DNA from: an uncultured Lentimicrobiaceae bacterium
GTDB taxonomy: Bacteria; Bacteroidota; Bacteroidia; Bacteroidales; WCHB1-69
Reading direction: 5' to 3'
Length of the DNA stretch: 31,806 nucleotides
Assembly (NCBI GenBank): GCA_964471715.1
Contig: CAYYHC010000002.1
Span: forward strand, 1-31,806
Made by a program: the position numbers and the translations under genes. Each line of letters opens with the position of its first letter. Within the stretch, counting starts at the first letter, position 1. Below are positions 906-22,497 of the stretch, in pieces. The notes under the pieces were generated by a model that saw only the letters and a list, made by a program, of their open reading frames with translations, had not been told where the DNA came from and searched no databases.

Positions 906-992
906 AGCCAACATACGATATAACCAATAAGAGTAGAAGTAGTATGGGAAGGTTTGTAACCGATAAAAAGAAAAAATGGCTACCCGTTAGGG
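906..992 (+). repeat. attC-like site, degenerate or hybrid
   Basis: agccAAC 906-912; right end tggctacccGTTagggcca (977-995) matches the right end of the local repeat family; AT-rich interior does not pair with it. Confidence 0.65.
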
Positions 993-1024
993 CCAATTAA
1001 AGAAACCGCATCAAATAAACTGTC

Positions 1025-1987
1025 ATGAATTTGAAAATGTATTTTTTATTGTTCGTTTTTATATTCTCTCATCAAAATATGGTTGGGATAGAAAAATCGA
1101 CAAATACAGACTATAACAAAAAGATTAATAATATATTTATAAATCTAGATTCAGTAATTTCAAATTCACAACATAAGGATAGAACCGTAGAAGAACACTT
1201 TAGATTTGTATATAAAAAGATAAAAGATGGCGATTTAGTTGTTCGTTTTGATAGTAATCTTGTGTATGATTTTTTTGGTTGTTCCTCTTTTAATGTTTCA
1301 AAAGGTGCTAACCATGATATTGAAATGATATTTGGTAATTATATTATAGATAAATATTTAAAATATCCATACCTGGTTTATGCTATTGTAGTACATACAT
1401 TTCAATACGCCTATGATTATTATAACAATCAATCTTTATTCATGATTAGTACTGAGAATCAAATTGAAAGTATTTTTTTTAAGATGGATGCTATTACAAT
1501 AGAAGCCATGTTCTTGAAGGCCTATAGTTCATACAATAAAAACCTTGGACCATTTGAAAATCTAATAATTGATGATTTTAGTAATGGTTTACCAAGTTCC
1601 TCAGCTCTTTTTTTGAAGACGGATATTCATCTGCTTCATGAAATGGATGCATTAAAGTCAAAGAGTGGCACAAGTAAATCTCTTTTAGACGAATATATGA
1701 ATATGGGTGAAACACTGATTAAGAACTTTAAACTAGAAAATAAAAGTGAATGGGAGAAATATTGTGCCTTGATTACTTTAAGGACATATGTATATTATAG
1801 TAAACAAGTTGTTTTTGATATTGTTTATGCAAAAGATGGTATCACTCAGGAATCATTTAATTTTGATCGATACTCAGATATTAGAACAACAATAGATAGA
1901 ATAATTAATATAATTGAATTGAATGAAGAACTATATAACGTTAAAGATAAAATATTGAAGGCATATAGTGATAAGTACAAGAATTAA
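1025..1987 (+). CDS. Hypothetical protein with probable signal peptide (cassette gene)
   Basis: 320-aa ORF with hydrophobic N-terminus; no recognisable family; bounded by complementary cassette ends. Confidence 0.75.
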   Translation: MNLKMYFLLFVFIFSHQNMVGIEKSTNTDYNKKINNIFINLDSVISNSQHKDRTVEEHFRFVYKKIKDGDLVVRFDSNLVYDFFGCSSFNVSKGANHDIEMIFGNYIIDKYLKYPYLVYAIVVHTFQYAYDYYNNQSLFMISTENQIESIFFKMDAITIEAMFLKAYSSYNKNLGPFENLIIDDFSNGLPSSSALFLKTDIHLLHEMDALKSKSGTSKSLLDEYMNMGETLIKNFKLENKSEWEKYCALITLRTYVYYSKQVVFDIVYAKDGITQESFNFDRYSDIRTTIDRIINIIELNEELYNVKDKILKAYSDKYKN

Positions 1988-1991
1988 CTGG

Positions 1992-2072
1992 CCCTAACAA
2001 CATCTAAACCTCAACCGCCGCTTCGCAGCTAACGCCGCTTGCTGACGGTCGTGGTCTGGATACTCGTTAGGA
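1992..2072 (+). repeat. attC-like recombination site
   Basis: ccctAAC-aacat-ctaaacc...ggtctgg-atactc-GTTagga, 81 bp, begins 5 nt after the stop codon. Confidence 0.85.
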
Positions 2073-2147
2073 GCAACGTTAGAACCAACTTCTTTACATT
2101 TATGCAACATTCATCATTCGCAATTTAAAAATATTCATATCTACAAA

Positions 2148-4721
2148 ATGAAAAAAGTATTCTTTGTAATCATGTTGATTATACTAAAAGCCGTAACGGC
2201 TGCTGCCACCACTCAGGTGCCTGCTGAACTGCGCGGTTACTGGCAATTACCAAACAAGATTGAATCCAAAGATGATTGGGCCGGAATAAACGTGGGTGAA
2301 AACTATGTGGAATTTGTTTACGCATTATTTTCAGTGGACAGCATTCACCAGTCGGATAAAAACTATACACTATTTTTAAACCTCGAGGGAAAGTGGAATG
2401 TTACCATGTCAATTGAGCTTTCGGCAAATGACAGCGCGGCGATTGAACTGAAACAGTATAATATGTCGGAAAGATGCAAACGGTATGACCGCGATCCGGA
2501 AATCAACTTTTTGCCCGTAGCTGATTTTTCGAAGGTGATAGCCGGAAAGCGGTTTGATGATTCCAATACACGTGAATCGTTTGCCATTGAGAAAGGTAAA
2601 TTGCTGTATGATGGCAAACGGTGGAATATTCTCTGGTTGGGAGAAGTTAAGAAGCATCAATACCGCTCAATCATTGAACGTGAAGGGAACTATCGTATGA
2701 TATGGTTTGATAGGCTGGAGGATAATTCATTGAAAGTTAGCTATTATGGAAAGACGTCTTTATACAAACCAAAGGAATCGGGCAGCAAATTGGCCATTGT
2801 GGGCAATTGGTATGAACCAGAAGGCAATGCGTGGGTGTTTGGCTTTTTTGAGAAGTTTGCTATTTACGATGGGAAGTTCTGGGACTATAAAACCCTAAAT
2901 CTTCAAGAATACAAAGGAACGGCTACACTGACAAATGGGAATGAGTCGCTTCAACTGACCTTCCAAAAGAATAAGGACAACACCCTGCAGGTTGTAATCA
3001 ACAATCAGAACGCTGTTACCTATCACTTGGCCGGACGCACGCTTCCACCGTATAAAACGAGCGATACGACTTCTTTTATCGATACGCATTATGCTCGCAT
3101 TGATACAGCCTACATTTCCGGATACTTGCGCTACAAGAAAAGAAAAGAGCCTTTTAAGATAGCTGTTCGCGATCCGATTTCCGACAATGAGGTGTCTTTT
3201 TATGGTAATGTGGATGATTTGGGGCGCTTTGAGATGAAGGTCCCCTTATACAATAGTTCCATGGCTTATTTTGAATGGGGGCAAATGAATGTATTGGAAC
3301 CCAATGAACACTATGTTGTTTTTTACGATGAAATAGGGAAGCAAACGCTGTTTATGGGTAAGAATACCCGCTGCCAAAATGAATTGGCAACAATTGATTT
3401 TTTCAAAATGCCCCAGGGTAATAAGGTCTCCGGTAAAACCACGCTTGATTTTTTAAGTGCTCAAAAAAGTGTTTTTGCCGTGAGAAAAGCATACATGGAT
3501 AGCATTATAAACCAAATGCCCAACCCTTCTTACAAGTTTCGCTATTTTTCAAACAACTATATTCGATACAACATAGCATTTGATCTGATGCAAAGACGTT
3601 TCTTTTTAGATAGAAAGAATCAGGAACAATTTCCCGTTGAATACATGGATTTTGCAAGGGATACCCTGCTTTCCAATCCAATACATCCTGTGACGCTGAA
3701 TCGGGATTTATTAAACTTTATCCGTGATTATGTGGGCTATTACACCGATCAAAAAGGAGCTATTTCCGTCAATACAATTGATGCCCTGCTTTCCTTGATT
3801 AAGTCTGAAAAGATCAAACTGGATGCCTCCGATTATCAACTTGTGGAAACAATTAAGACTGCTATTGGGTTTGAATTAAAAGGGGATACTGTTCAGGCTA
3901 AAAAGGTGGTCGCTAATTTTACACAAAAAGAGATTGATCGATTAAATAACATCACCAACAAGGTTCAAAACAAGAAAGCTATTTCAGCCGAATTGTCCAG
4001 GATGACGTCGGAAATGCGGTTGAAAAGAACGATTGAAGCCTTGCATGAGGAGATTCAGGATAAAAGCATCCGTGATTATTATGTAGCAAAATCACTTTAC
4101 GAAAAATTGAATGGTGACAGAGCTCCCTTGGATTCAAAATTGCTCGACAGTTTATTGGTGCAGGTGGAATCACCGGCTTTCAGGAAGAAAGTGATGGATG
4201 CTCAAACGTTTTATACCGAATTATCCGGGCAAAGTATAGAGCATGTCGAAAGCTTGAAAAACACCGATCATTTGAGCAACGCAAAAAATGCCGATTCGTT
4301 GTGGGTGGAACTAATTCGTCCCTACAAAGGAAAAATTATTTACGTTGATTTCTGGGGTACGTGGTGTGGTCCCTGTAAAAAGGAAATGGAATACGTTGCT
4401 GACTTGAAAAAGCAATTTGTGGGTAAGGATGTTGTCTTTATGTATTTGGCCAACAATTCACCGGAAGTCAGTTGGAAAAATGTCATCAAGGACTATTCGC
4501 TAACGGGCGAGAACGTGGTGCACTATCGGTTGCCTGCAGAGCAACAAACCATGATTGAGCAACGATTTGGAGTCAATGCCTTTCCCACCTATATGATTGT
4601 GGATAGGAATGGGAACATAGTAAACACCGATCCACCAAGTCCAAGCCAAAAACAAGCAACGGTAAGCTTTCTGAACGACTGGTTAGAGAAAAAAAATGAG
4701 AATACTGAAATCAAAAGATAA
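2148..4721 (+). CDS. Large exported protein with C-terminal TlpA/redoxin (thioredoxin-like) domain
   Basis: Signal peptide; VDFWGTWCGPCKKEM CxxC motif; FPTYMIVDRNGNIV cis-Pro loop region. Confidence 0.85.
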   Translation: MKKVFFVIMLIILKAVTAAATTQVPAELRGYWQLPNKIESKDDWAGINVGENYVEFVYALFSVDSIHQSDKNYTLFLNLEGKWNVTMSIELSANDSAAIELKQYNMSERCKRYDRDPEINFLPVADFSKVIAGKRFDDSNTRESFAIEKGKLLYDGKRWNILWLGEVKKHQYRSIIEREGNYRMIWFDRLEDNSLKVSYYGKTSLYKPKESGSKLAIVGNWYEPEGNAWVFGFFEKFAIYDGKFWDYKTLNLQEYKGTATLTNGNESLQLTFQKNKDNTLQVVINNQNAVTYHLAGRTLPPYKTSDTTSFIDTHYARIDTAYISGYLRYKKRKEPFKIAVRDPISDNEVSFYGNVDDLGRFEMKVPLYNSSMAYFEWGQMNVLEPNEHYVVFYDEIGKQTLFMGKNTRCQNELATIDFFKMPQGNKVSGKTTLDFLSAQKSVFAVRKAYMDSIINQMPNPSYKFRYFSNNYIRYNIAFDLMQRRFFLDRKNQEQFPVEYMDFARDTLLSNPIHPVTLNRDLLNFIRDYVGYYTDQKGAISVNTIDALLSLIKSEKIKLDASDYQLVETIKTAIGFELKGDTVQAKKVVANFTQKEIDRLNNITNKVQNKKAISAELSRMTSEMRLKRTIEALHEEIQDKSIRDYYVAKSLYEKLNGDRAPLDSKLLDSLLVQVESPAFRKKVMDAQTFYTELSGQSIEHVESLKNTDHLSNAKNADSLWVELIRPYKGKIIYVDFWGTWCGPCKKEMEYVADLKKQFVGKDVVFMYLANNSPEVSWKNVIKDYSLTGENVVHYRLPAEQQTMIEQRFGVNAFPTYMIVDRNGNIVNTDPPSPSQKQATVSFLNDWLEKKNENTEIKR

Positions 4722-4731
4722 AAAAAGCTGC

Positions 4732-4792
4732 TCCTAACACTACCAAAGCCACATGCGCCTGAAGGAACACGTGGCCTAGCCACCTGTTAGCG
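4732..4792 (+). repeat. attC-like recombination site (short type)
   Basis: tcctAAC-actac-caaagcc...ggcctag-ccacct-GTTagcg, 61 bp; inner stem acatg/cacgt. Confidence 0.85.
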
Positions 4793-4860
4793 AACATTGC
4801 AAGAAAGTTGAAGCAATTGCATACTATCTTATGCTTTTAAAAACAGATAAAAATCAAGCA

Positions 4861-5298
4861 ATGAAAACGAAACTTACATTTGGAATTTTAATCCTGATAA
4901 TATTTATTGGATGCACTTTCAGTTATAATAAGAGTGAAATAAACGGAATTGAAGCCCTAATTGAAGCAGAAGATATTACAAAATCATTTTATGATTATCA
5001 AACAACTGATAGTAAGGATATTTTCAAATTATTTAGTAGCGACTTTTTAAATAGTATAGGAGAAGATAGTTTGCTCGCATACTTAAAACATAAAAAAATA
5101 CTATTGGGGAACCTTAAAAAGGATTCTCTTGAAGAATGGGAAACTAAAATTGTAAAAGGGAAAAACTCTAGCTCTAGTTACTTTTTAAAATATAACAATG
5201 TATATGAGAATAGCCTTGTAACTGAATCTTTTAAAATGAAAAAAGGATTTTTAGGCAAAATAAAGATTATAGACTATAGATATGAGATTAAAAACTAA
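4861..5298 (+). CDS. Hypothetical lipoprotein (cassette gene)
   Basis: MKTKLTFGILILIIFIGC lipoprotein-like signal; alternative start at 4831. Confidence 0.7.
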   Translation: MKTKLTFGILILIIFIGCTFSYNKSEINGIEALIEAEDITKSFYDYQTTDSKDIFKLFSSDFLNSIGEDSLLAYLKHKKILLGNLKKDSLEEWETKIVKGKNSSSSYFLKYNNVYENSLVTESFKMKKGFLGKIKIIDYRYEIKN

Positions 5299-5305
5299 AA
5301 ACGTT

Positions 5306-5386
5306 TGCCAACACCACCCAAACCACAGTCGCCGCTGCGTAGCTAACGCCGCTTGCTGACGGTAGTGGTCTGGATATTCGTTAGCG
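5306..5386 (+). repeat. attC-like recombination site
   Basis: tgccAAC-accac-ccaaacc...ggtctgg-atattc-GTTagcg, 81 bp; core gctaacgccgcttgctgacggt shared with the site at 1992. Confidence 0.85.
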
Positions 5387-5503
5387 GCACGCATAAAACC
5401 GGCAATTCAAAGTTCCATTAATTGTAAAAGGTAGAAATCCAATACCACCAAGAGATTGAATGATAACCACAGTATTAGCTTTTATAATTTAAAACCGAAA
5501 AAC

Positions 5504-5932
5504 ATGAAAAAAGCATTTGTCTTATTAAGTTTGGTGATTGTCTCATTTGCATTATCGGCACAAGTTCATGTTCCCGCCTCCAAATCGATTATTGGAGTAT
5601 GGAGACAAACTGGCGCAATGACTAATACCGGTGAATTAGTTAAAGTGAAATCCGGCAATTATAAGGTTATCAATCCTGATGGTACATCTTACACCATTAT
5701 AACGTGGGGTAATGGTTCTACAACGATAGGCTTTTATGCTACTTGCAAAATGACATCAGATAGTACATGCAAAGAACATATTTTTAAACATGCCAATCCA
5801 GAGATGGATGGAAAAGATGTTGCAATTAGATTTAGATTGATTGATGAAAATAATATGAGAATGGATTGGAATCTTGGTGAAAGATGGATAAATGAGAGCT
5901 GGACGAGATTACAAGTTGGGAATCAGAATTGA
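5504..5932 (+). CDS. Exported protein, DUF4488-like
   Basis: Signal peptide MKKAFVLLSLVIVSFALSAQ; IIGVWRQ...NYKVINPDGT pattern resembles Bacteroidota DUF4488 (family recalled, not searched). Confidence 0.6.
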   Translation: MKKAFVLLSLVIVSFALSAQVHVPASKSIIGVWRQTGAMTNTGELVKVKSGNYKVINPDGTSYTIITWGNGSTTIGFYATCKMTSDSTCKEHIFKHANPEMDGKDVAIRFRLIDENNMRMDWNLGERWINESWTRLQVGNQN

Positions 5933-6020
5933 GTTTATATCAGATAAACATATAAAATGATGTAAGTCAATTGGCTGATAAATAAAAAATGACACCTACT
6001 ACCTTATATAACATTAAACT

Positions 6021-7091
6021 ATGAGAATAATTTTCACAGTGATTTTTATTCTTTCATGTCTAATTTCATTTGGACAAACTTCTGCAATTGACGATTTATG
6101 GAAATTGTACAACTCACAAGATTTAAAATCAGCAATTGAAAAAGCGAAATCACTTCTTGAAAATGACCCCCATAATATTGACTTAAATTTAATAATTGGG
6201 CGTTCATACACAGACCAAACAAATTATAAAAATGCTATTACTTATCTTGAATCGACAGTAAAAAATGATAAAAACAATTCTTGGCGCAAAGCATGGGCAC
6301 TTGAATATTTAGGTACTTGTCATTTCATGCTTCAAGATTATGCCAATTCAAAAAAAACTACTATAGAATGTTTTGATTTAAATGTTACTAAAAATGTAAC
6401 ACAAAATGCGTACAAACAAATCTTATTGTTTGGATTTGACGATTTCTACAAGGATTGGAAAATTGTTGAATCAGATAATTTTAGGTTTCATTTTCAAAAC
6501 ATGAGTGATTCTGATATAAAAAGCTATGTATCATCGCGAGAAGAGACTTTTCAGAATATAAATAAATTCTTTACTAGCAGATTGCCAAAGAAGATTGATT
6601 TCTTCGTTTGGGAATCAAGAGAGGATGCAAAGAACCTGTTAAAAGTCAATTTAGGATTTGCTGACCCTGGATTTTGTATCGTTCATTCTCATTATCAGCA
6701 AACAAGAGGACATGAAATGACCCATGTTATATCAAACTATTCGACCAAGGTTATTACTAAAACTGGATTGATAAATGAAGGTACTGCGGTATGTTTTGAC
6801 CAAACAAATCAAAATAAAGAGCAAATTGTAAAAGATTGGTTAAAAGAAAATGACAAGAAAATCTCAATTGGAGAGATTTGGGACAATTGGAAAAATTATT
6901 CAGAGGAATTAACATATCCGCTTTCTGGATTATTTGTAAAAGAATTGATTGATACATTTGGCAAGGAAAAATTCATCGATTTTTTCAGTAATCAGACTTA
7001 TGAAAATGCGAAAATAGTATTCGGTGCTAATCTTGACAAAATGATTAAAGAGTTTGAAGATAAGATAAATAAAATACTACAGACAACATGA
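6021..7091 (+). CDS. TPR-containing exported protein with zincin-like (HExxH) domain
   Basis: Signal peptide; N-terminal TPR-like helices; GHEMTH followed by INEGTAV. Confidence 0.7.
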   Translation: MRIIFTVIFILSCLISFGQTSAIDDLWKLYNSQDLKSAIEKAKSLLENDPHNIDLNLIIGRSYTDQTNYKNAITYLESTVKNDKNNSWRKAWALEYLGTCHFMLQDYANSKKTTIECFDLNVTKNVTQNAYKQILLFGFDDFYKDWKIVESDNFRFHFQNMSDSDIKSYVSSREETFQNINKFFTSRLPKKIDFFVWESREDAKNLLKVNLGFADPGFCIVHSHYQQTRGHEMTHVISNYSTKVITKTGLINEGTAVCFDQTNQNKEQIVKDWLKENDKKISIGEIWDNWKNYSEELTYPLSGLFVKELIDTFGKEKFIDFFSNQTYENAKIVFGANLDKMIKEFEDKINKILQTT

Positions 7092-8688
7092 TGCGACAGA
7101 TTCAAATTTTAGCATTGCTTTTATTTCTATCCGCTTGTGGGCAAAAAAAAGTAACGATTGAGGCATTAACTACAACAAAAAACGAACTTGAAAAACCCAT
7201 AGGTATTTCTTTTGAGGTGGACAATGTTGAGTTGGCGAATGCTTTGCTTAAAACTGATTCGGCAAGATTTATTTTTGAAAATAAAATTGGCAAAGAAATT
7301 CGTTATTTCCCCGAAGTACAAATTAATGATTGTCTGGTTAATTGTTCCAATAATGGTTTAATTCAAACCATCCAGGAGTGTTATGATAATCATCGCCCAT
7401 TGGTATTAACACCTGATGTAATCTGGTTGGCGATATGTCAAGGCGTTTCGATTCACATTAATGAACAGTATGATTCGCTTGAAAATACAATTTTCAAAGA
7501 ACACAAACCAGATGAAATTATCATTAGAAATGATGACCTGGATAAATCCAATAATTACTGGGGAAAACTGATTGCTTCGTTTGCAAATGAAACAAAGAAG
7601 TACACGCGTGATGATTTTTATTCATTTTTTGTTTCTGAGTTTACAACAACTACTCCAATCATCAAGACTACTTATCAGATTACATTGTTGGAAAGCTATA
7701 AGAAAGCATTTGAATACATTGGTGAATCCGGTTGCGGTATACCATCAATTTGTCTTACTGGAACCAAAGCAGATTGGATAAGTATATACAATAAACTGGA
7801 TATGCTGGATAAAATAGGTCTAGCCAATTGGAAAAAAAATCTAAAACCAATTATCTCAGAATTTATCAGTGCATCTGAAGGACACATAAAAATGCCACTG
7901 AATATAATGCGTTTTATATATCGGGTTGGATTATTAAGTTCTTTCCCTATATAAAAGAGCATGAATCCGATGGTGTATATATTAAAGAGCGTGATGAAAC
8001 CAGATTTGGAGACATTTTTCTTACAAATAAATTTATAGATGATAATGACTATTTACTTTCAACATTATCAACGGACAACTTTCCATCAGGCATAGCAAAG
8101 GTTCCGATCACCTGGAATAATTATTACAAGAAAACAACAATTAAAATGGAGGTTTATGCTGGATTCTTTGCTATAAAACAATATCACGATAAAAGTCTTG
8201 AGCCATTTGTTTCATGGGCAATCTGCGAAAAAAATGCAAAGATTGCCAATCATAGTCTGGTAGAAAATGAAAGTCTAAACTTAAAACATCAACCGGATTA
8301 TTGGTCACCAAATTTTGCATGGAGGTTAACTGATTCTGCTATATATGACGTTAAAAGGTTTAAATCACAAAGCATAAGTCTTGCGTATATAAAATCAAAG
8401 ATTCTTGATTCATTAAGAAGAAATTCACGCTTTAATAGTGCTGAATACAGTAATGATACCATTCAAATTGAAATATTGTCAAATGGTAGGCCTGCAGGGG
8501 TTACAATGTATAAGTCAAAAAATGTGCAATTGTCTAATTATATCAAAGGTTTGATAAAAGGTTTACCCGAACAATGGTTTCCTGCATTAGCACATCCAAC
8601 AGATGTTTTGGATCTGATGGATGCTATTTCAGACGAAGAAAATAAAATAAAAGTAAGAGTAAACAGTATGGTAAAAATTGGATTGTAA
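7088..8688 (+). pseudogene. Frameshifted DUF4419-like lipoprotein
   Basis: LSAC lipobox; NGLIQTIQECYDNHRPLVLTPDVIWLAICQG motif; frame shifts -1 near 7888 and continues KNATEYNAFYISGWIIKFFPY... without a stop into ORF 8146..8688. Confidence 0.75.
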
Positions 8689-8699
8689 GTAAGTACTGG

Positions 8700-8771
8700 C
8701 CCAAGGAACATCTAAACCCCAACCGCCGAAGCGCCTCTTGCTGACGGTAGTGGTCTAGATACTCGTTATAA
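8700..8771 (+). repeat. attC-like site with mutated left core (AAC changed to AGG)
   Basis: tggcccaagg-aacat-ctaaacc...ggtctag-atactc-GTTataa; aligns with the 1992 site; interior shortened. Confidence 0.8.
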
Positions 8772-8774
8772 GCC

Positions 8775-9266
8775 ATGTTAGAGCCCACTATGTTGGTATC
8801 TGCCATTTTAAATCAAAGAAAGTTGTCATATGTACATTTGCCAAACAGTATTTTAGATATTGATGTTTTTGCTTTTTCTATGTGCGAGCAATTGGAATCA
8901 GTACTATTGCCATCGGATTTAGATAGCATATCAGATGCGTTATTTGCCGGATGTCAAAAATTGAAACACGTAAATATTCCAAATGGATTAACGTACATTG
9001 GTCATAAAGCGTTTTTTCTTTGCATGAGTATTGAATCTATTTCGATACCAAAATCAGTAGTTGACTTGAATGGTTGTGCTACATTTCTCGGATGCAAAAG
9101 CTTAAAGAAATTTGTTGTGTCATGGCTACAACCTGTCCAAATTCACCCGCTTATGATTGATGATATTGGTTCAAATCTTTGTGAGTTAGTTGTTCCAAAA
9201 GGTAAGTTGAAAAAATAGAAAGAAGCCAATGGTTGGAAAAATTTTAAAAAGATTGTCGAATCATAA
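8775..9266 (+). pseudogene. BspA-type leucine-rich repeat (LRR_5) protein remnant
   Basis: About four 23-aa repeats (e.g. LKHVNIPNGLTYIGHKAFFLC); in-frame TAG at 9216-9218 interrupts the KK*KEANGWKNFKKIVES tail; no signal peptide. Confidence 0.75.
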
Positions 9267-9280
9267 TCAGAAATCGCTGC

Positions 9281-9360
9281 AGCTAACAACATCTAAACTC
9301 CAACCGCCGCTGCGCAGCTTCACCGCTTGCATACGGCCGGTGTCTGGCTACTCGTTAGCT
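9281..9360 (+). repeat. attC-like recombination site
   Basis: agctAAC-aacat-ctaaact...tgtctgg-ctactc-GTTagct, 80 bp. Confidence 0.85.
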
Positions 9361-9510
9361 CTAATCGTAAAACGCACAGGTCTAGTTTTCTACAATTGAA
9401 TTTGAAAAGAAATGCATTAAGCTTGGTTTGACAAACAGAAATTTCAGAAAAGCGGAGACAATTAAATTTTGGTATTACCTGATACAAACAACTATAAAGA
9501 CTGACAGAAA

Positions 9511-9984
9511 ATGGATTTAATAGGGAAAACAACAATTAACCCACTGTTTTTTTATTCGGGAAAGATTTTGGGTTATATAACGTGGATTGTTCAGTTGCTA
9601 TTAATAATGGGAATGGATGTAATTAACAGATTAACATGCAGATATAATGAATATTTGTCTTTCACGTTGCTTTTTGTAGGATTGGTTTTTATTGTACTTA
9701 GCCTAATAAATTTGGGTCGCTCAACAAGATTGGGACTGCCTACAGATAAGACAGTTTTTAAAACGAATGGTCTCTATAGACTAAGTAGAAATCCAATGTA
9801 TGTTGGGTTTAATCTGTTGACTATATCGTCAATGATTTACACTTTAAACATCTGGATATTAGTGCTAGGGATTTATAGTATAGTTATTTACCATCTGATA
9901 ATTTTGGGAGAGGAACGATTTTTGAAAAACAGATTTGGTGAGCAATATTCAGCCTATTTACTAAAAATTCGGCGATATTTGTAG
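9511..9984 (+). CDS. Isoprenylcysteine carboxyl methyltransferase/PEMT-family membrane protein
   Basis: Several TM segments; GLYRLSRNPMYVG and EERFLKNRFGEQY motifs. Confidence 0.85.
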   Translation: MDLIGKTTINPLFFYSGKILGYITWIVQLLLIMGMDVINRLTCRYNEYLSFTLLFVGLVFIVLSLINLGRSTRLGLPTDKTVFKTNGLYRLSRNPMYVGFNLLTISSMIYTLNIWILVLGIYSIVIYHLIILGEERFLKNRFGEQYSAYLLKIRRYL

Positions 9985-10048
9985 ATAACGTTAGATGACA
10001 AGATTAATTATTTTTGTCCCCATTATCTCAAGATAAAAAAACGACCAG

Positions 10049-10109
10049 GGCTAACAACCGCCTAAGCCATAGCCACCAAAAGTGGATGCGGCCTGGCTAC
10101 CCGTTAGCT
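10049..10109 (+). repeat. attC-like recombination site (short type)
   Basis: ggctAAC-aaccgc-ctaagcc...ggcctgg-ctaccc-GTTagct, 61 bp. Confidence 0.85.
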
Positions 10110-10198
10110 GCCATAGTAACAGTCCGTAACTCATATGAGTTCGATTTATCAACAAAGGATATACAATAATAGAATTTCAGTACAAAATTGAGGATAAT

Positions 10199-10654
10199 AT
10201 GAAAGAAATTAAGAATTTATCTGAAGGCAATTTTCATACAGCTATTGATTTGGGGTTGTTTAGCGAATTATTCGATTATTCGCTGATTCACCCAGTGAGT
10301 AAACGTGAAATTGAAGGTAAGGTTTTTCTAAAAAATGCAACGAAATCAACTGGTACAGAGATATCATTTAATTCCATTCCGCCTAAAACAGAGGTTCCTT
10401 ATTTTCATATACATCGAAAGAATGAGGAAACATATATAATTCTTCAAGGATCCGGATACTTTCAAGTAGATGAGAATTGTTTCAAGATCAAACAGGGAAG
10501 CATTATTAGAGTTTCTCCAGCTGGCAAACGTGGATTGGTAAATACCTCAGATGAGCAGATGATTTATTTAGTAATTCAATCGAAAGAAAATTCACTGGAA
10601 GAATATACCACAGCTGATGGTGAGATGCTTCCTGTTGATCCTAAATGGAGATAA
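10199..10654 (+). CDS. Cupin-domain protein
   Basis: PYFHIHRKNEETYIILQGSGYFQVD (cupin motif 1) and IRVSPAGKRG (motif 2). Confidence 0.85.
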   Translation: MKEIKNLSEGNFHTAIDLGLFSELFDYSLIHPVSKREIEGKVFLKNATKSTGTEISFNSIPPKTEVPYFHIHRKNEETYIILQGSGYFQVDENCFKIKQGSIIRVSPAGKRGLVNTSDEQMIYLVIQSKENSLEEYTTADGEMLPVDPKWR

Positions 10655-10666
10655 ACAAACTACGGC

Positions 10667-10749
10667 AGCAAACACAGCCTAAGCTACAGCATTCACTCAG
10701 TCGAATATGTACCTTCGATTTCGGCCGTTGGCCTAGATACCCGTTATGT
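10667..10749 (+). repeat. attC-like recombination site
   Basis: agcaAAC-acagc-ctaagct...ggcctag-ataccc-GTTatgt, 83 bp. Confidence 0.8.
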
Positions 10750-10770
10750 GGCATTTTAAAATAAAGAAAA

Positions 10771-11526
10771 ATGGCATTCTTTACATTTGAAAACAAGAAA
10801 GTTTATTATAAAGAGATTGGGACAGGAGAGCCGATATTACTTTTAGCCGGAAATACAGCTTCTTCAAAGATGTTTAAATCTATAATTGGAAAATACTCTA
10901 AAGATTTCAAAGTGATTCTGATTGATTTTCCAGGTCATGGAAAATCTGAAAGACTTGAAAAATTTGAAATTGATTTTTGGCATTATAACTCAAGAGTATG
11001 TTATCAGTTGATTGAATTTTTAAAACTTGATAAAATATCAATTATTGGAACAAGTGGAGGTGCATTAGTTGCAATTAATTTAGGGTTAGAAAATCCGGAA
11101 AGGATTAATTATTTAATTGCAGATAGTTTTGAAGGTGAATATCCCTTAGATTCTTATATAGACTCATTAGAAAGTGATAGAGAAAAAGCTAAAAAGAACA
11201 TATTTGCAAAATTATTTTGGTTTTATAATCATGGTTTTGATTGGAAAAAAGTAGTTGATTTGGATACAGAGATGCTGGTTAATTTCTCCAGGCAAGGTAA
11301 GTCATTCTTTCATAAGTCAATTTCTGAATTAACAGTTCCTACTTTATTGTCAGGTAGTAAAGTTGATGAGTATTGCGATTCATTGGATAAAATATATGAA
11401 GCATTGAAATTTAAAAATAATAAACTAGAAATTCATATGTTTGAGAAAGGGAAACATCCAGCAATGCTAACCAATAAGAATGACTTTTATGAAATAGTGA
11501 AAAACAAAATAAAAAACGCAATATAA
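10771..11526 (+). CDS. Alpha/beta-fold hydrolase
   Basis: DFPGHGKS; nucleophile elbow GTSGG; C-terminal GKHP. Confidence 0.85.
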   Translation: MAFFTFENKKVYYKEIGTGEPILLLAGNTASSKMFKSIIGKYSKDFKVILIDFPGHGKSERLEKFEIDFWHYNSRVCYQLIEFLKLDKISIIGTSGGALVAINLGLENPERINYLIADSFEGEYPLDSYIDSLESDREKAKKNIFAKLFWFYNHGFDWKKVVDLDTEMLVNFSRQGKSFFHKSISELTVPTLLSGSKVDEYCDSLDKIYEALKFKNNKLEIHMFEKGKHPAMLTNKNDFYEIVKNKIKNAI

Positions 11527-11567
11527 TTGAAAAGAATTATAAAAAATCTAATAAATAACAAAACCAC

Positions 11568-12146
11568 ATGAAAACACGTGAACTTTATTCTATTGTTTTA
11601 AAGATTATTGGCTTGATATCGTTGTGGCATTTAGTAACCATTTTATTTCCTATATTATTCTCTGGCGTTTTTTTATCTAAAATGTTATTTTCAGCCGTTA
11701 ATTTAGTACCTGTTAGCTATCTGTCAGCATCATTATTTGTCATGATTCTTCAGTTGGCATTGGTGTTAGTTATCTCGATTTATTGTTTGTTTCGTACTGA
11801 AACTCTGCTCAAGGTCTTAAAGTTGAATGATGATTCAACGTTGGAGATATTGTCAGAGAGAAAAGTACTATATCATTTACTTGTATTGTCATTTGGCGTG
11901 TTCTTGTTTGCCGATGGTTTAAACAGTTTTTATACGATAAATACAAAAACAGACACAATAAGTGATATGTCAAAAGCGATGTATACAGTAAATAACACTC
12001 TAAGTATTGTACAAATGACAGAATCAAAGAATTACAGTCTTAATTATTTTGCATTTATTGAGTTATTGATAGGACTAATTCTGTTGATTAAATCTAGAGC
12101 TGTTACAAAATGGATTCTTTGTAGGGTTGATTCGTCCAGTTATTGA
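11568..12146 (+). CDS. Hypothetical membrane protein
   Basis: About four hydrophobic segments. Confidence 0.7.
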   Translation: MKTRELYSIVLKIIGLISLWHLVTILFPILFSGVFLSKMLFSAVNLVPVSYLSASLFVMILQLALVLVISIYCLFRTETLLKVLKLNDDSTLEILSERKVLYHLLVLSFGVFLFADGLNSFYTINTKTDTISDMSKAMYTVNNTLSIVQMTESKNYSLNYFAFIELLIGLILLIKSRAVTKWILCRVDSSSY

Positions 12147-12345
12147 GCAGATTAGAGATCTGTACTTCATGAATTTTGCTGAAAGAGTGACGTCAATTCA
12201 CTTAAAGATTGAGAGTGATACAAACAATATTGTCGATATAAATACCGTAAATGAAAGATTGGATTGTGTGTATAATGATTCGATTCTAGAAATTTATGTT
12301 CAAGATGAAACGTCAGTTACATCATGTTTTAGTGGGGGCAAATAA

Positions 12346-12402
12346 AAGTACATAAATGCTTTTCTTTAATAAAATCAACTGCGCCGTAGCTATAAGTTAT
12401 GC
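12346..12402 (+). repeat. Degenerate attC-like site (only the right core is convincing)
   Basis: GTTatgccg at 12396 complements cggcacAAC at 13315-13323 after the next gene (8/9); left part (gtacataaa) is degenerate. Confidence 0.5.
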
Positions 12403-12431
12403 CGCATACAATCATACCAATATAAATAGAT

Positions 12432-13307
12432 ATGCTTACAGAAAATATTGATAACCAAATCGAGTTTAATCAAGGCAAGAATATTTTTCTTGATCGATTG
12501 GATTTTTTTCAATTTGCAGAAGAAACGGTTAAGGCTATTTCAAATATTGATCAGTTAAATCCAGATTCAAAAGAAACCTTAATTGATTACACTACTGATA
12601 AAGCAATAGAAGAATTTTGTAGGATAAACCAATATTACTCGTTTGACTCAAAGGCAAAAAATGAGTTAAGAAAAATCTACTCTGATTTATTTGGGACTTT
12701 TCAGACAAAGACAGATTCGATTGAAAATATTTCTAAGAATCATTATGAAAAACTAAAAGAGTGGATTAGAGAAAGTAATCCTTTTGCTGAAAAAATTTAT
12801 AAGAATAACAACAAGAATGTTAATCCAATTGCTTGCTCAGAATATAGTCCTGATTTACAAATCAATATATTAAAGATTGATATTGAACATTTAAGGCAAC
12901 CTGTTTTAGATATAGGTTGCGGAAGTCAGGGACATTTAGTTAATTATCTCAAAAATCTAGGGGTTGAAGTTTTTGGTATTGACAGATTTAGGTTTAAAAC
13001 CTTAAATATGAAAACAGTAGATTGGTTGGAATTTGATTATGGAAAGGAAAAGTGGGGGACAATAGTAAGTAACTTAGGTTTTTCCAATCATTTCATTCAC
13101 CATAATTTGAGAGAAGATGGAAACTATATTGAATATGGAAAAACATATATGAATATTTTGAAATCATTGAAAGTTGGTGGATGTTTCCATTATGCACCAG
13201 ATTTGCCATTTATTGAAAAATATCTTGACAATAATCAGTTTGACTTAAAGAAATTCGAGATAAATGAATATGGTTTTAAAACGACGATAATAAAAAGAAT
13301 GAAATAA
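12432..13307 (+). CDS. Class I SAM-dependent methyltransferase
   Basis: VLDIGCGSQG motif I; FGID; LKSLKVGGCF. Confidence 0.8.
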   Translation: MLTENIDNQIEFNQGKNIFLDRLDFFQFAEETVKAISNIDQLNPDSKETLIDYTTDKAIEEFCRINQYYSFDSKAKNELRKIYSDLFGTFQTKTDSIENISKNHYEKLKEWIRESNPFAEKIYKNNNKNVNPIACSEYSPDLQINILKIDIEHLRQPVLDIGCGSQGHLVNYLKNLGVEVFGIDRFRFKTLNMKTVDWLEFDYGKEKWGTIVSNLGFSNHFIHHNLREDGNYIEYGKTYMNILKSLKVGGCFHYAPDLPFIEKYLDNNQFDLKKFEINEYGFKTTIIKRMK

Positions 13308-13316
13308 AGTACGACG

Positions 13317-13350
13317 GCACAACATAGTGTATAAAATATTGGGGTTAATG
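13317..13350 (+). repeat. Truncated attC-like site (left arm only)
   Basis: gcacAAC-atagtgtataaaatattgggg begins 10 nt after the stop codon; no matching right arm follows. Confidence 0.5.
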
Positions 13351-13399
13351 TATTTCAGTTGCCAACATCTACAGTGAATCTTAATTATTCAAAAGAAAT

Positions 13400-13790
13400 C
13401 TGTCCATTTTAACAAGACATATCGATATGGGATATACTTTTGATTATGTTCATGAATGGGATTTGTTAGGTAAATAGTTGACTGACCATTGGACTCGTAT
13501 ATCTAATCCATATGGATTTTATGTCCACGAAGCCAAGTCTGGTGGATATCTTAATTTGGGGACATACTTTTTTTTAGACGAACATCTCATTTGTACCCAA
13601 GTCAAGATTGGATGTTTATCCTAATCTTCGAATGAATGCTGTAAGAAGTTTAATAACTCAGGATTTATAGAGAATTTGCAAAGCAAGATTCTGGTTCATT
13701 GGTTCGTGAAGATGCTTTCAAGCAGCTTATTGATAATGTGTACATTATGAGAGAGCTATCCTTGCGCGCATTTTATAAAATTAGTTGAAG
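13400..13790 (+). pseudogene. Degraded coding remnant, possibly HEAT/leucine-rich-variant repeats
   Basis: Interrupted frames read DVYPNLRMNAVRSLITQDL* and AKQDSGSLVREDAFKQLIDNVYIMREL. Confidence 0.35.
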
Positions 13791-13916
13791 GCTATTTTTT
13801 TGAAAAACGACAATTCTATTTTACGAGAGAAAGGTTGGGTATCGTGGGAAAAACTTCCAGACGAACGTAAAGCAAAAGGAGTCGGATTTACTTATGTTAA
13901 TAAAAAATGATATACG

Positions 13917-14360
13917 ATGAGAATCAAAAAGATTATCGAAAATAAGAAACAATTTCTGGATTTATTGTTGTTGGCAGACGAGCAGGAAAATATGATTGAC
14001 AACTATTTGCCGAGTGGAGAGCTGTTTGCATTATATGACGATGATTTGAAAAGTCTCTGCGTTGTAACACCGATAAATAACGAAAGTTGTGAGTTGAAGA
14101 ATATTGCAACCTACGAGAAATATCAAGGCAAGGGCTACGGTAGAGCATTGATAAGTTTTATTTCTGATTACTACAAAAACACCTACAAAACAATGCTTGT
14201 GGGAACAGGCGAAACGCCTTCAATCTTGTCATTTTACGAAAATTGCGGATTTGAAAAGTCGCATCGGGTAAAGAATTTTTTTACAGACAATTACGATCAT
14301 CCAATGTTTGATGGCGACATCCAACTTATTGATATGATTTATCTAAAAAAGGATTTATAG
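13917..14360 (+). CDS. GNAT-family N-acetyltransferase
   Basis: [21 protein letters not shown] (motif A); FYENCGF. Confidence 0.9.
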
Positions 14361-14386
14361 GAAAGTGGGATGGCAATAAAAACGAA

Positions 14387-14466
14387 GACTAACATTACAT
14401 AAACCCCAGCCGCAGCTACGCAGCTACGCTGCTCGCTGACGGCCGGGGTCTGGCTACTCGTTGTAA
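14387..14466 (+). repeat. attC-like recombination site
   Basis: gactAAC-attac-ataaacc...ggtctgg-ctactc-GTTgtaa, 80 bp; inner stem ccagccg/cggccgg. Confidence 0.85.
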
Positions 14467-14481
14467 CAATGAACTGTGACA

Positions 14482-15405
14482 CTAGAAACGCATAAAGAAA
14501 TCCCACGTTTCTTTGGCAATCCAGTTGACATCAGAACCGGCATCTTTGACGTTTTCCGTATGGCCACCAACGAATGAACCGAACATGACCGGATATTCTG
14601 CAGGAAGACCTTTGAATTCAGTGGTAACATGAGTCGTCTTTGTCGTGGCTAAGGGTATTTCCGGCATTTGTTTCAAGCCATTGTCTTCGATGTGTGTCAA
14701 TACACAGTACTTGCCTCCTTGCTTGCGTTCATCGGAGTTGACATACTTGCAAAGTCCATCTTCGGTACCTGTTGTGCTGAAGAAAGCCAATGGTTTGTGT
14801 TTGTTTTCAGGCAGGTAAATGTTCCAGTTGGCAGGAGCATAACACGCTACAGCACGCAGGTCGTCCTGGAATTCCAATGACAAGGAGTAGGTAAACATGG
14901 CACCAAAGCTGAAACCGCAACTGTAAATGCGGGAAACATCTATGCTCAACTTATCTTTGAACAGTTTAAGCATATCGGCAAAGAAGATGTGGTCTTTGTC
15001 ATCACGCGTACGCCAGGGAGAACCGTCGGTGTACCCCTGAGGTGCCACGAAAATGACAGGTTCATTGCTTTTTTCGGCATAGGTTTTTAACCCATAATAG
15101 TTGTTGTCAACCATTGTTTTCATGCTGCCCCCCATCATGTGCATGGTAAAAATCAAGCGGTATGATTTTTTCTTGTCGTAGTTTGCGGGGATGTCAATGG
15201 TGTATTGGCGTTCAAGTCCGGCACTGGTCATGGTATAAATACCGCTTTTGAAATCACCCAGTTCTTTGCCGTAACCGGCACTGCGAACCGGCGCATTTTT
15301 AAGATTGCGGGCAGCATTGACTGAGTTGACCGTTTGGTGGCTGGCACATCCCGTGAGCGCTAAAATTGAAACTAAAAGGAGAAAGAGTACTACTGTTTTT
15401 TTCAT
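14482..15405 (-). CDS. Secreted esterase lipoprotein (feruloyl esterase/PHB depolymerase-like alpha/beta hydrolase)
   Basis: LTGC lipobox; FTMHMMGG; VAPQG; GFSFG nucleophile; GGHT. Confidence 0.75.
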   Translation of the reverse strand: MKKTVVLFLLLVSILALTGCASHQTVNSVNAARNLKNAPVRSAGYGKELGDFKSGIYTMTSAGLERQYTIDIPANYDKKKSYRLIFTMHMMGGSMKTMVDNNYYGLKTYAEKSNEPVIFVAPQGYTDGSPWRTRDDKDHIFFADMLKLFKDKLSIDVSRIYSCGFSFGAMFTYSLSLEFQDDLRAVACYAPANWNIYLPENKHKPLAFFSTTGTEDGLCKYVNSDERKQGGKYCVLTHIEDNGLKQMPEIPLATTKTTHVTTEFKGLPAEYPVMFGSFVGGHTENVKDAGSDVNWIAKETWDFFMRF

Positions 15406-15698
15406 CGTTCATGATTTAAAAATGATTCTTTGTTTTTTCTTGTTATCTTGTATGTGTTAAACAACTGATGTTCGTTTTTACGGTTTGTCCACTATCCTTG
15501 TTTGGAATGGAAACGAGTAAAGCTGCATATGAATACCAAGCGACTTTCCTTTATTTACAGGGCGAAGATACACATATTTCTGTTTGAGTATATGTCAATA
15601 ACATTTTATATAGATGTTGCCAAGAGCCCTGTCTTTTTACGTCAATATTAATTGTTATGATTTTAAACCAATGCTTCGTTTTTGGTTTACCGAAATCC

Positions 15699-15713
15699 GG
15701 ATACCCGTTAGCA
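15699..15713 (+). repeat. attC-like right-end remnant
   Basis: gg-ataccc-GTTagca matches the family right end (compare tag-ataccc-GTT at 10734); 34 nt upstream of the WYL gene ATG. Confidence 0.5.
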
Positions 15714-15740
15714 ACAATATAACAACCACACACATAGACA

Positions 15741-16439
15741 ATGAATAGAATTGACAGGCTTACAAGCATACTTATACAACTTCAATCCAAACGACTGATA
15801 ACTGCTGGTGAAATAGCTGAACGGTTTGAAGTTACAAACAGGACAATTTACAGAGATATACAAACATTACGGCTTGCAGGTGTTCCAATTGGCGAAGAAG
15901 AAGGAAAAGGTTATTTTCTAGTGGAAGGTTATCGGTTGCCACCTGTAATGTTCACAATGGAAGAAGCGAGAGCTTTGGTAACAACTAGTAAAATTTTAAA
16001 CTACCATACCGAAGATTCTCTTAGACATAATTATGAATCTGCACTTTTGAAAATAAAAGCAGTTTTACCACTCAAAGACAAAGACAAACTGGAATTTTTA
16101 AATGCAAGAATTGGATTTCATGAACCATGGGCACCGACAAGTTTATATTTAGACAGTATCCAGCATGCAATTACCGAAAGCGTAAAACTGAAAATGGCCT
16201 ATCAGACAAGAGGAGAAGATCAACTAAAAGATCGAACCATCCATCCTTATGCTGTTTATTTCAGTGGTGCTGTTTGGACAACCATTGCCTTTTGTGAATT
16301 ACGACAAGAAATAAGAGAGTTTCGCCTTGACAGAATAAAAGAACTAATCGTGCTTCAAGCTCATTTCAAACCCGACAAGACTTTCTGTATTGAACATTAT
16401 TTAGAAGAACGTTCAAAAAGATTATTTTCAAACCCCTGA
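15741..16439 (+). CDS. YafY-family HTH-WYL transcriptional regulator
   Basis: MNRIDRL...AERFEVTNRTIYRDIQTL wHTH; GYFL; WYL-like WTTIAFCELRQEIREFRLDRI. Confidence 0.9.
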   Translation: MNRIDRLTSILIQLQSKRLITAGEIAERFEVTNRTIYRDIQTLRLAGVPIGEEEGKGYFLVEGYRLPPVMFTMEEARALVTTSKILNYHTEDSLRHNYESALLKIKAVLPLKDKDKLEFLNARIGFHEPWAPTSLYLDSIQHAITESVKLKMAYQTRGEDQLKDRTIHPYAVYFSGAVWTTIAFCELRQEIREFRLDRIKELIVLQAHFKPDKTFCIEHYLEERSKRLFSNP

Positions 16440-16452
16440 CAAAGGGCTGTCC
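16437..16452. promoter_or_regulatory. Candidate operator TGACA-N6-TGTCC
   Basis: Near-palindrome overlapping the WYL stop codon, 38 nt upstream of the hydrolase ATG. Confidence 0.4.
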
Positions 16453-16489
16453 TATGTGCCTTTTATTTTTGCTTCAAATTCAAACAAAA

Positions 16490-17380
16490 ATGAAAACAAG
16501 AGTAATTTTATTAATGGTTATTGCTTCACTTTTATCAAATGTAAGCATGGCACAGGCACAAGAAAGAATGATGGCTAAACAAGTTACTATCAGAGACAAA
16601 CAGGTTGAAATCAATTATTTTCAACAAGGGCAAGGTGACACTACACTTCTCTTTTTGCACGGCTGGAGTATTAACGGAACGTATTGGGAGAATCAAGTAG
16701 ACTATTTTTCTAAAAAATACACTGTTTTCGCAATTGACCTGCCGGGCTTTGGCAAATCAAAAGCTGCAAGAACCAACTGGACCATTGAAGAATATGCCAA
16801 TGATGTAACTGCATTTATAGACGCAATGAACCTTACTCATGTTATTATCATTGGACATTCTATGGCAGGCGAAATTATGTTACAAACTGCCTTAACCAAC
16901 AATCCCAAAATAGTTGGCATTGTAGGTGTCGACAATTTCAAGTCCATTGACGTTGTATTACCGCCGGAACAAATGAAACAAATGAACGACTTCTTTCCTC
17001 TGCTTGAAAAGGACTTTAAAAACTCAGCACCTGTTTATGCTGATCTGATGCTTTTTCACCAGACAACGTTAAAGGAAGTCAAAGACAGAGTAAAGACTGA
17101 TTTTGCGAACAGCGATCCCATCATTGGTTATGGCACAATTATTACCCAAATGCAATACTCATATAACGATGCACAAAGGCTGGAGCAGCTCAATTACAAA
17201 TTATATTTGATAAACAGTGACGGTATTCCAACAAACGAAACCGGTCTTAAAAACCATTGTAAAAATGGCTTTCAAGTGGAAACCATCTCTGCGACCGGAC
17301 ATTTTCCAATGATAGAAAAACCGTCAGAATTTAATTTAAAATTAGAAAAGGTGCTGACGAGTATTTATATATTTTTATGA
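16490..17380 (+). CDS. Exported alpha/beta hydrolase
   Basis: Signal peptide; FLHGW, DLPGFGKS, GHSMA, GHFP. Confidence 0.85.
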   Translation: MKTRVILLMVIASLLSNVSMAQAQERMMAKQVTIRDKQVEINYFQQGQGDTTLLFLHGWSINGTYWENQVDYFSKKYTVFAIDLPGFGKSKAARTNWTIEEYANDVTAFIDAMNLTHVIIIGHSMAGEIMLQTALTNNPKIVGIVGVDNFKSIDVVLPPEQMKQMNDFFPLLEKDFKNSAPVYADLMLFHQTTLKEVKDRVKTDFANSDPIIGYGTIITQMQYSYNDAQRLEQLNYKLYLINSDGIPTNETGLKNHCKNGFQVETISATGHFPMIEKPSEFNLKLEKVLTSIYIFL

Positions 17381-17442
17381 TTTATAAAATAAGAAAGAAG
17401 CATAATTAGTAGATATTTGCAATACATAAAAAAAAATTGTTG

Positions 17443-18864
17443 ATGACTACCGAAAAAAAGATTTCACGATTTCAGCAACCAAGAAAACAGTGGATTAAAT
17501 GCCTCGCGTGGAGTTTATTGTACATTCTATTTATTGTTTGGGTCGATAACTTTTGGTGGTTATTTTTATTACCCTTCATTTTTGATGCATTTATTTCCCA
17601 CTATATACCATGGACATGGTGGAGAAAAACAAGAAACAAGACACTATTAAGTATTATGGGTTGGATCGATGCGGTATTTTTTGCATTGATTGCAGTGTAT
17701 TTCATCAATATCTACCTTTTCCAGAATTATCAGATTCCAAGTTCCTCACTCGAGAAGAGTTTATTGGTGGGTGATTTCTTGTTGGTTAGTAAAGCAAGTT
17801 TCGGGCCCCGTGTTCCAATTACTCCTCTTTCTTTCCCTTTGGCGCAACATACATTGCCGATTCTCAATTGCAAATCATTTATCGAGCATCCTCAATGGAA
17901 TTACCGACGTTTAAAGGGTTTTGATAAGTTGGAACGTGATGATATTGTGGTTTTCAATTTTCCAACAGGCGATACGGTCACATTGAAGGTTTCAAATCCC
18001 GATTATTACACGTTATGTTACCTGTATGGAAAAGAAACCGTTCATGGAAGAAAGGATATTTTCGGCGATTTGGTTTATCGACCTGTTGACCGCCGTGAGA
18101 ATTATGTGAAACGATGTGTCGCCATTGCCGGTGATTGGCTTCAGATAAAAGAGAATCAGGTTTTCGTAAATGGGCAAAAGCAAAAGAAAATTCCAGGAAT
18201 GCAGTTGAACTACTTTGTCCAGACTGATGGTACCTATTTGTCAAGATCACAAAAGTTAGCGTTGGGAATAAGTCATGAAGATGATTCACTGATGATAAAG
18301 AGTGGTCAAAGCCAACAACTGAATCAAATGAATGCACAACTCATCCAAGCAATCGGGTTAGACCCGCAATTGCCTGTATACCATTTTCCTTTAAATGAAG
18401 AATCATATAGAAAAATACTCAAAGTAAGAGGCGTTACAAAAATTAAAATGGAACAATCGATGAGTATGGATATGTTTCCCCTAGGTGGACAAAAAAATTG
18501 GACACGCGATAATTATGGGCCAATATGGATACCCCAAAAGGGTGTGACACTAACGCTCAATTCCTACAATTTCCCACTATACGAACGAATCATCCGGGTC
18601 TATGAGAACAACCAACTGGATGTGATAAATGGTGTTTTTTATATAAACGGTAAGCCTACAAATACGTATACATTCAAAATGAATTATTACTGGATGATGG
18701 GTGATAACCGTCATAATTCATTAGACTCTCGTTATTGGGGATTCGTGCCAGAGGATCATATTGTTGGTCGACCGGTTTTTGTGTGGCTTTCCTTAGACAA
18801 AGACAAAAGCTGGTTAACAGGTAAGATAAGGTGGAATCGTTTTTTTAAGAATGCTGAGAATTAA
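17443..18864 (+). CDS. lepB: Signal peptidase I (long Bacteroidota type)
   Basis: YQIPSSSLEKSLLVGDFLLVSK (Ser box), DIVVFNFP, YVKRCV (Lys), MMGDNRHNSLDSRYWGFVP. Confidence 0.92.
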   Translation: MTTEKKISRFQQPRKQWIKCLAWSLLYILFIVWVDNFWWLFLLPFIFDAFISHYIPWTWWRKTRNKTLLSIMGWIDAVFFALIAVYFINIYLFQNYQIPSSSLEKSLLVGDFLLVSKASFGPRVPITPLSFPLAQHTLPILNCKSFIEHPQWNYRRLKGFDKLERDDIVVFNFPTGDTVTLKVSNPDYYTLCYLYGKETVHGRKDIFGDLVYRPVDRRENYVKRCVAIAGDWLQIKENQVFVNGQKQKKIPGMQLNYFVQTDGTYLSRSQKLALGISHEDDSLMIKSGQSQQLNQMNAQLIQAIGLDPQLPVYHFPLNEESYRKILKVRGVTKIKMEQSMSMDMFPLGGQKNWTRDNYGPIWIPQKGVTLTLNSYNFPLYERIIRVYENNQLDVINGVFYINGKPTNTYTFKMNYYWMMGDNRHNSLDSRYWGFVPEDHIVGRPVFVWLSLDKDKSWLTGKIRWNRFFKNAEN

Positions 18865-18882
18865 GAAGGGAAACAAACTGCT

Positions 18883-18890: not shown

Positions 18891-18897
18891 TTACACG

Positions 18898-22493: not shown

Positions 22494-22497
22494 GCGA

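Follow-up and report, generated by a model that had tools for sequence, protein, structure and literature searches.

The closest described relatives of the locus studied here are sedentary chromosomal integrons and attC clusters that have no integron integrase (CALINs), in which small, co-oriented and mostly promoterless genes are separated by attC sites that are alike within an array, are built as R''-L''-loop-L'-R' between an AAC and a GTT, and fold better on the bottom strand. Insertion of a cassette splits the R' box (PMC11014356), with the crossover at G|TT, so that the TTRRRY behind an attC is already part of the following cassette (PMC11014356, PMC3518468). The same features mark the first half of our window, a stretch of 31,806 nucleotides that makes up the entire contig CAYYHC010000002.1 (C2) of a metagenome-assembled genome (MAG; GCA_964471715.1; 2.1 Mb, 253 contigs, 84% complete) attributed to an uncultured Lentimicrobiaceae bacterium. 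Unlike sedentary integrons and CALINs, the window has no integron integrase (IntI), attI or Pc in view, its R arm, once the two ends of a cassette are rejoined, is a fixed 15 bp instead of the nominal 7 bp, and position 11 of this arm invariably forms a T.G wobble in the bottom strand. We find that the array very probably consists of integron-type cassettes, and that the pairing between the two ends of each cassette is the footprint of a circle opened within GTT.

The array runs from the contig's first base to about position 15,710 as a row of small genes, mostly co-oriented. Its products comprise LamG-like, redoxin-domain (857 aa), DUF4488, TPR, DUF4419, BspA-type LRR, PEMT-like methyltransferase, cupin, alpha/beta hydrolase and GNAT proteins, and several genes have no family match; such small, diverse and mostly co-oriented content is typical for integrons. 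Between the genes stand repeats of 60-85 nt that start with YYYAAC and end with GTTRRRY, the layout of the attC sites (59-base elements) of integron cassettes. Eight repeats were aligned on the bottom strand, and their RNAalifold consensus is a hairpin with compensatory pairs within the inner stem. A covariance model built on this alignment, R1, recovers precisely the same 8 repeats in a single orientation at 53-92 bits, each an imperfect palindrome with R'' (RYYYAAC) and R' (GTTRRRY) around L''/L' and a variable loop. All lie on the plus strand, as do the half-stems given below: 1992-2072 (cassette A; R'' 1992-1998, R' 2066-2072; 91.6 bits on the bottom strand, also matched by nhmmer), 4732-4792 (cassette B; 53.2 bits), 5306-5386 (cassette C; 84.4 bits), 8700-8771 (ending block D; 69.4 bits), 9281-9360 (cassette E; 89 bits), 10049-10109 (cassette F; 54.3 bits), 10667-10749 (cassette G; 62.3 bits) and 14387-14466 (cassette J, after the GNAT gene; 84.6 bits). 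The sites of B and F are of a short type, and that of block D has a degenerate R'', with CCAAGG in the column that otherwise reads YYTAAC. R1 additionally reports a weak, atypical site after the LamG-like gene (906-992, plus strand, R' GTT at 986; only 11.5 bits), and degenerate R'-like boxes occur at 12396 and 15707. The window from 1 to about 15,710 is therefore read as the distal part of an integron-type cassette array, cut by the contig start.

The sequence-only reading had proposed that cassette ends pair across each gene rather than within the repeat, the GTT end upstream of a gene matching the reverse complement of the AAC end downstream of it. All six end pairs that it listed lie where it had placed them, with the identities it had given. 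In cassette A, 986-1000 matches 1984-1998 at 14/15 positions, the sole difference being position 11 (A vs G), and the regenerated circle junction folds on the bottom strand to a continuous 17-bp stem. The left end of cassette B at 2066 matches 4729-4738 at 10/10, and over the full half-stems (2066-2080 and 4724-4738) at 13/15, with the first 10 contiguous. Cassettes F (9354-9368 with 10041-10055; 12/15) and G (10103-10117 with 10659-10673; 13/15) pair in the same manner. Cassette C matches at 8/10 (4786 vs 5303-5312) and at 10/15 over its half-stems (4786-4800 and 5298-5312), the weakest of the positive pairs bounded by attCs. For cassette I, the probable half-stems 12396-12410 and 13308-13323 pair given one bulged base: 12396 vs 13315-13323 agrees at 8/9, followed, after the 1-nt bulge, by 4/5 plus the A/G position; no attC was detected alongside by R1. 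The short pairing within a repeat, the other half of the claim, likewise holds: the sites at 1992 and 4732 have unbroken runs of 6 and 5 bp, respectively. We note that the list held working pairs only, leaving off cassettes D and E, which fail.

The statistics were consequently run on all 7 cassettes bounded by R1-confirmed attCs (A to G), unselected, and over positions 4-15 only, which leaves the invariant GTT uncounted. In the permutation test that the sequence-only reading had proposed as its check, same-cassette pairing beats permuted pairings (exact P = 0.0006), with a mean of 7.9/12 own-cassette matches vs 4.45 (standard deviation 1.64) for other pairings. The result holds when position 11 is dropped (P = 0.0009) and on the positions beyond the 7-bp core alone (P ~0.001), while the pairing within a repeat, between the right end of one cassette and the left end of the next, averages just 4.2/11. 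An open search, in which each left end could choose any partner at most 3 kb away and was scored against a null, returned the own-cassette pairs of A, B, F and G with scores of 14-15 (P <=0.001 each). The pair 12396/13323 scores 13 with one bulge and is marginal (P ~0.05), and 4786/5312 scores 12, not significant alone, its partner being set independently by the attC model. For the left ends 5380, 8765, 8777, 10743 and 15707, no better partner was found anywhere in the window; the match of left end 5380 with right end 9287 (8/12) falls inside the range of off-diagonal scores. Own-end pairing in the window is thus confirmed. As a separate observation, the left ends 2066-2084 and 8765-8783 each carry a second GTTAG precisely 12 nt past the first (at 2078 and 8777).

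The same pairing recurs in related arrays. A degenerate-pattern scan of metagenomes yielded 5 loci, including contigs with the window's attC family; two exact-pattern scans of genome contigs gave no match. One such contig is L019, 12.5 kb long with 15 R1 matches and 14 cassettes, where the two ends agree at 13-16 of 18 positions in 13 of the 14, own pairing averages 10.3/11 (permutation P <5e-6) and, for 13/14, no other end scores as high as the own partner. The one cassette fails because an element of the IS110 family of insertion sequences (PF01548/PF02371) interrupts its attC between R'' and L''; there, the own-end rule locates the right end at 457 (14/15). This element (L019 459-1803) is 99.9% identical to positions 1-1345 of another contig, L050, and hence occupies two different arrays. 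In this the L019 element resembles the IS1111-attC group, insertion sequences known to sit inside attC sites. Contig C239 of genome G088, a MAG of the same family (locus L047), holds an own-end pair at 14/15, and the L048 array several at 12-14/15. Overall, the own partner is strictly best for 21/25 cassettes. In searches of genomes, R1 found nothing in 150 genomes of the family except two weak matches on G088:C239, and whole-MAG scans with nhmmer and covariance models found attCs on C2 only.

We next consider where the cassettes are joined. In L019, paralogous attCs hardly differ over the stretch from AAC through GTT. Their divergence sets in at position 4 on either side, and the bases from there outward covary with those at the opposite end of the same cassette. 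As judged from sequence, the exchange point is bracketed to the GTT triplet, because the conserved module ends at GTT and own-end covariation begins at position 4. The R' box in the array is accordingly a hybrid: the permutation tests find the bases past G|TT complementary to the downstream cassette's own R''. The exact G|TT bond lies below the resolution of sequence comparison and is taken from published experiments (PMC3518468, PMC5027507); of these, PMC5027507 sets the cut within the bottom-strand AAC, between A and C. The proposal that each unit was a circle opened between G and TT is thereby supported, through own-end covariation and the bracketing to GTT, with the bond itself supplied by publications. 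One cassette of L048 has ATT at its left end (2394) and AAT, not AAC, in its own R'' (3356). Here position 1, which under G|TT exchange would belong to the upstream cassette, appears to covary, a lone instance that could be chance.

In the mechanism that we propose, each cassette, a gene followed by its attC, R'' (YYYAAC), L'', loop, L' and R' (GTTRRRY), would travel as a circle. A tyrosine recombinase would cut the bottom strand, once folded, within AAC, between its A and C, which corresponds to G|TT on the top strand. Upon insertion, the cassette would keep G, with all that lies 5' of it, at its 3' end, while TTRRRY and the bases following it would form its 5' end. With the site split at G|TT, the R'' arm would therefore match its own cassette's start and not the adjacent R' in the array. 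Excision would rejoin both halves, and in the window's family the R arm would become a 15-bp stem with the T.G wobble at position 11. The circle, the exact bond and the enzyme are inferred from published integron biology. The reading is correct but textbook: the pairing re-derives, from raw sequence, the known mode of insertion of integron cassettes, and the array otherwise adds to the cassettes already known.

The only potentially new detail, seen across the window (986-15707), L019, L047 and L048, is an arm of fixed length, 15 bp, that bears an invariant wobble. Of the 21 cassettes with good pairing, 19-21 match at positions 4-10 and 12-15, and the stem sequences vary from cassette to cassette while remaining complementary. 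All 21/21 read A at position 11 of the left end and G at position 11 of the right end when reverse-complemented, so that the bottom strand forms a T.G wobble and the top strand a C/A mismatch. Position 16 never pairs, with A on the left end and T on the other. We also observe that positions 15-17 of the left end mostly read TAA or TAG, and that the flank of the right end is an A-run on the top strand, immediately past the stop codon of the open reading frame (ORF). Folding of 21 sites with DNA parameters predicts a mean of -24.3 kcal/mol for the bottom strand of the rejoined circle junction and -17.5 kcal/mol for that of the in-array site (Wilcoxon P 2e-6 between the two), compared to -16.1 and -11.1 kcal/mol for the respective top strands. 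By these predicted energies, the bottom strand folds more stably than the top in 21/21 sites.

Comparison with canonical integrons reveals which part of this detail is shared. In a class 1 array (plasmid NZ_CP132601.1; aac(6')-Ib-cr, blaOXA-1, catB3, arr-3, dfrA27, aadA16), own-end complementarity likewise reaches across the gene from GTT, in runs of 9 bp for blaOXA-1, 13 contiguous bp for catB3 (15/16), 8 for arr-3 and 8 for dfrA27, and an integron on a cyanobacterial plasmid, next to an annotated integron integrase, shows runs of 11 and 9 bp. Pairing past 7 bp is therefore common in canonical integrons, and its length is variable. Unlike the window, the class 1 cassettes vary in stem length (8, 8, 9 and 13 bp) with no fixed wobble position, their attCs are mutually unrelated, and IntI1 and attI1 are present; across the canonical cassettes checked, the range is 8-13 bp, against the fixed 15 bp of the window. 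It is conceivable, and no stronger than a tentative suggestion, that the recombination-competent site is not the 7-bp R box but an arm of fixed length, 15 bp, formed in the excised circle alone, with the wobble as an undescribed determinant of strand choice or recognition that makes the free cassette a far better substrate than the in-array site and biases the system toward insertion over excision. Such a determinant may add to the extrahelical bases, the unpaired central spacer and the variable terminal structure. A literature search on attC plus wobble turned up only unrelated primer papers. If arm and wobble were functional, they would offer a testable handle on strand choice in attCs outside Proteobacteria, and on the differing reactivity of the free circle and the integrated site.

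Several results weigh against our reading of the array as integron-type cassettes. In the MAG, which is 84% complete and whose array is cut by the contig start, no protein reaches the NCBIfam cut-off for an integron integrase. R1 finds no attCs of its type in 9 genomes of the order that carry IntI (in 8 of them, IntI exceeds the curated cut-off). The short unitigs of 4 public runs revealed neither a circle junction nor a precise excision variant. Two of the 7 model-bounded cassettes (D and E) and several distal units (H and J) lack the pairing. Finally, the alignment hints at a 1x1 C/A mismatch (columns 15/70) instead of a bulge, and the L box may thus hold a mismatch and not the classical extrahelical bases.

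These exceptions bear on a first alternative, in which the pairing is a fossil, the array being an inactive CALIN whose cassettes are now immobile in this genome. Sites are degenerate or missing toward the right end (12396, 13323, 15650-15707), those of units I, J and K being atypical or decayed. The last unit, K (14460-15713, listed on the plus strand), carries a minus-strand gene (14482-15405), a decayed R''-like box at about 15650-15661 and an R' GTT at 15707; its left end matches 15647-15661 at 10/15 with the AAC replaced, and an R'-like motif lies at 15696-15710. Block D (5380-8709, plus strand, four ORFs), whose ends are unpaired (2/11 own-end matches) and whose R'' is degenerate, probably represents fused or decayed cassettes. 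Within it, the DUF4419 ORF (7088-8688 region) matches only positions 1-178 of the 303 in the profile, the following ORF (8146-8688) matches no family, and the two are possibly one disrupted gene. Cassette E (8765-9287) fails as well, at 5/11 variable positions. In block H (10743-12396, plus strand), a hydrolase gene and a membrane-protein gene follow one another with no attC between them and no clear right end. The latter gene (11526-12133) is 90% identical to a discrete L019 cassette (8926-9532) with intact 15-bp ends, whereas in the window it is fused behind the hydrolase gene, among different neighbors and with eroded ends. Judged by this similarity, one gene in two contexts would count toward the modularity of the cassettes.

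The exceptions fit decay toward the distal end of an old array, and the fused blocks D and H, the truncated DUF4419 match and the missing integrase all speak for present inactivity. In contrast, five cassettes retain 12-14/15 complementarity with an invariant position 11, and in the related L019 array the pairing is near-perfect, pointing to recent or ongoing selection for the rejoined stem. We consider immobility in this genome possible, though not probable; it concerns present activity and is compatible with the origin of the footprint in a circle opened within GTT.

A second alternative concerns the enzyme: a non-canonical, Xer-like tyrosine recombinase without the IntI-specific segment might serve the array, which would then be integron-like and not a true integron. 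In its favor, all matches of the MAG to TIGR02249 are below the 265-bit cut-off (the best, on other contigs, at 113+103 bits) and skip model positions ~182-236, a region that holds the IntI-specific extra segment, while full IntI matches in the same order cover those positions; the missing R1-type attCs in the IntI-positive genomes point in the same direction. However, the recombinase sequences on contigs C24 and C202 are different genes and Xer-like, of which that on C24 looks like an ordinary XerC/D and that on C202 is a broken fragment. None of the MAG's Xer-like genes adjoins an attC, attCs being confined to C2, and a search for contig-end overlaps linking a recombinase to the array found none. 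G088:C239 has no recombinase either. Moreover, every related contig starts inside its array, and the upstream side is cut in the window, L019 and L048; contig L052 extends the window upstream by 611 bp and adds one further attC only. L052 also supplies the upstream left end for the weak site at 906-992, whose best own-partner R'' is then 918-924 (10/15). Canonical IntI does exist in the order, above cut-off in 8/401 genomes. In the 20-kb flanks of IntI genes in four genomes (G276, G395, G356, G466), own-end detection turned up no convincing arrays, an uninformative result since the arrays there were not located. Taken together, we find service by a Xer-like enzyme unlikely, though not implausible.

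Small transposons with 15-bp terminal inverted repeats recognized by a transposase would also give each unit inverted ends, with a GTT start and an AAC end, as indeed observed. Yet the end sequences are not constant among the units, as transposase recognition would demand, no target duplications flank the units in the sequence, the units are joined solely via a conserved hairpin module with attC architecture, and the fixed A/G asymmetry at position 11 renders the pairing strand-specific; this explanation is highly improbable. That the matches are chance or the shared GTTRRRY/RYYYAAC consensus, as off-diagonal pairs sharing 4.5/12 and the individually weak pairs 4786/5312 and 12396/13323 might suggest, has next to no probability left, being refuted by the permutation tests (P 6e-4 in the window and <5e-6 in L019), by the own partner being strictly best in 21/25 and by a signal that continues beyond the 7-bp core.

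We therefore retain integron-type cassettes, with own-end pairing as the footprint of the opened circle. With 8 strong attCs and no IntI on the contig, the array falls under the definition of a CALIN (at least 2 attCs, no IntI nearby); it is a CALIN by what is visible on a contig that starts inside the array, in a MAG 84% complete. Draft assemblies are known to inflate CALIN calls, and complete integrons are rare in complete genomes of Bacteroidota (PMC9024848), to which the window's putative host belongs. The assignment of C2 to this MAG is itself doubtful. The contig is a composition outlier (tetranucleotide distance rank 75 of 78; GC 0.43 in the right half vs 0.38 in the genome), and the right half (15700-31806) has no nucleotide similarity in 18 genomes of the same genus except ~135 bp of a signal peptidase gene, a segment with a second copy in the MAG on C231. 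Judged by composition and similarity, C2 may be mis-binned or a foreign island.

Beyond confirming a known mode of insertion, own-end complementarity marks the true boundaries of cassettes. This use located the IS-interrupted attC that the model had missed in L019, and flags the fused or decayed blocks D and H in the window.

Parts of the array are present in 8 public runs from 4 studies (bioreactor and wastewater metagenomes). In runs X1, X3 and X6, from three studies, unitigs join the window from 882 onward, just past the LamG-like ORF, to different upstream sequence, which suggests that the window's attC region from 882 follows another gene elsewhere. A unitig joint from 5332 to 14440, between two similar attCs and with a side of 23 nt, was treated as a repeat artifact. 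Among the cassettes of L048, positions 1718-2261 encode a ParD/ParE toxin-antitoxin pair; toxin-antitoxin cassettes are common in sedentary chromosomal integrons. Outside the array, the window carries six tandem copies of a 63-bp unit (23298-23752) inside the ORF at 23187-23891.

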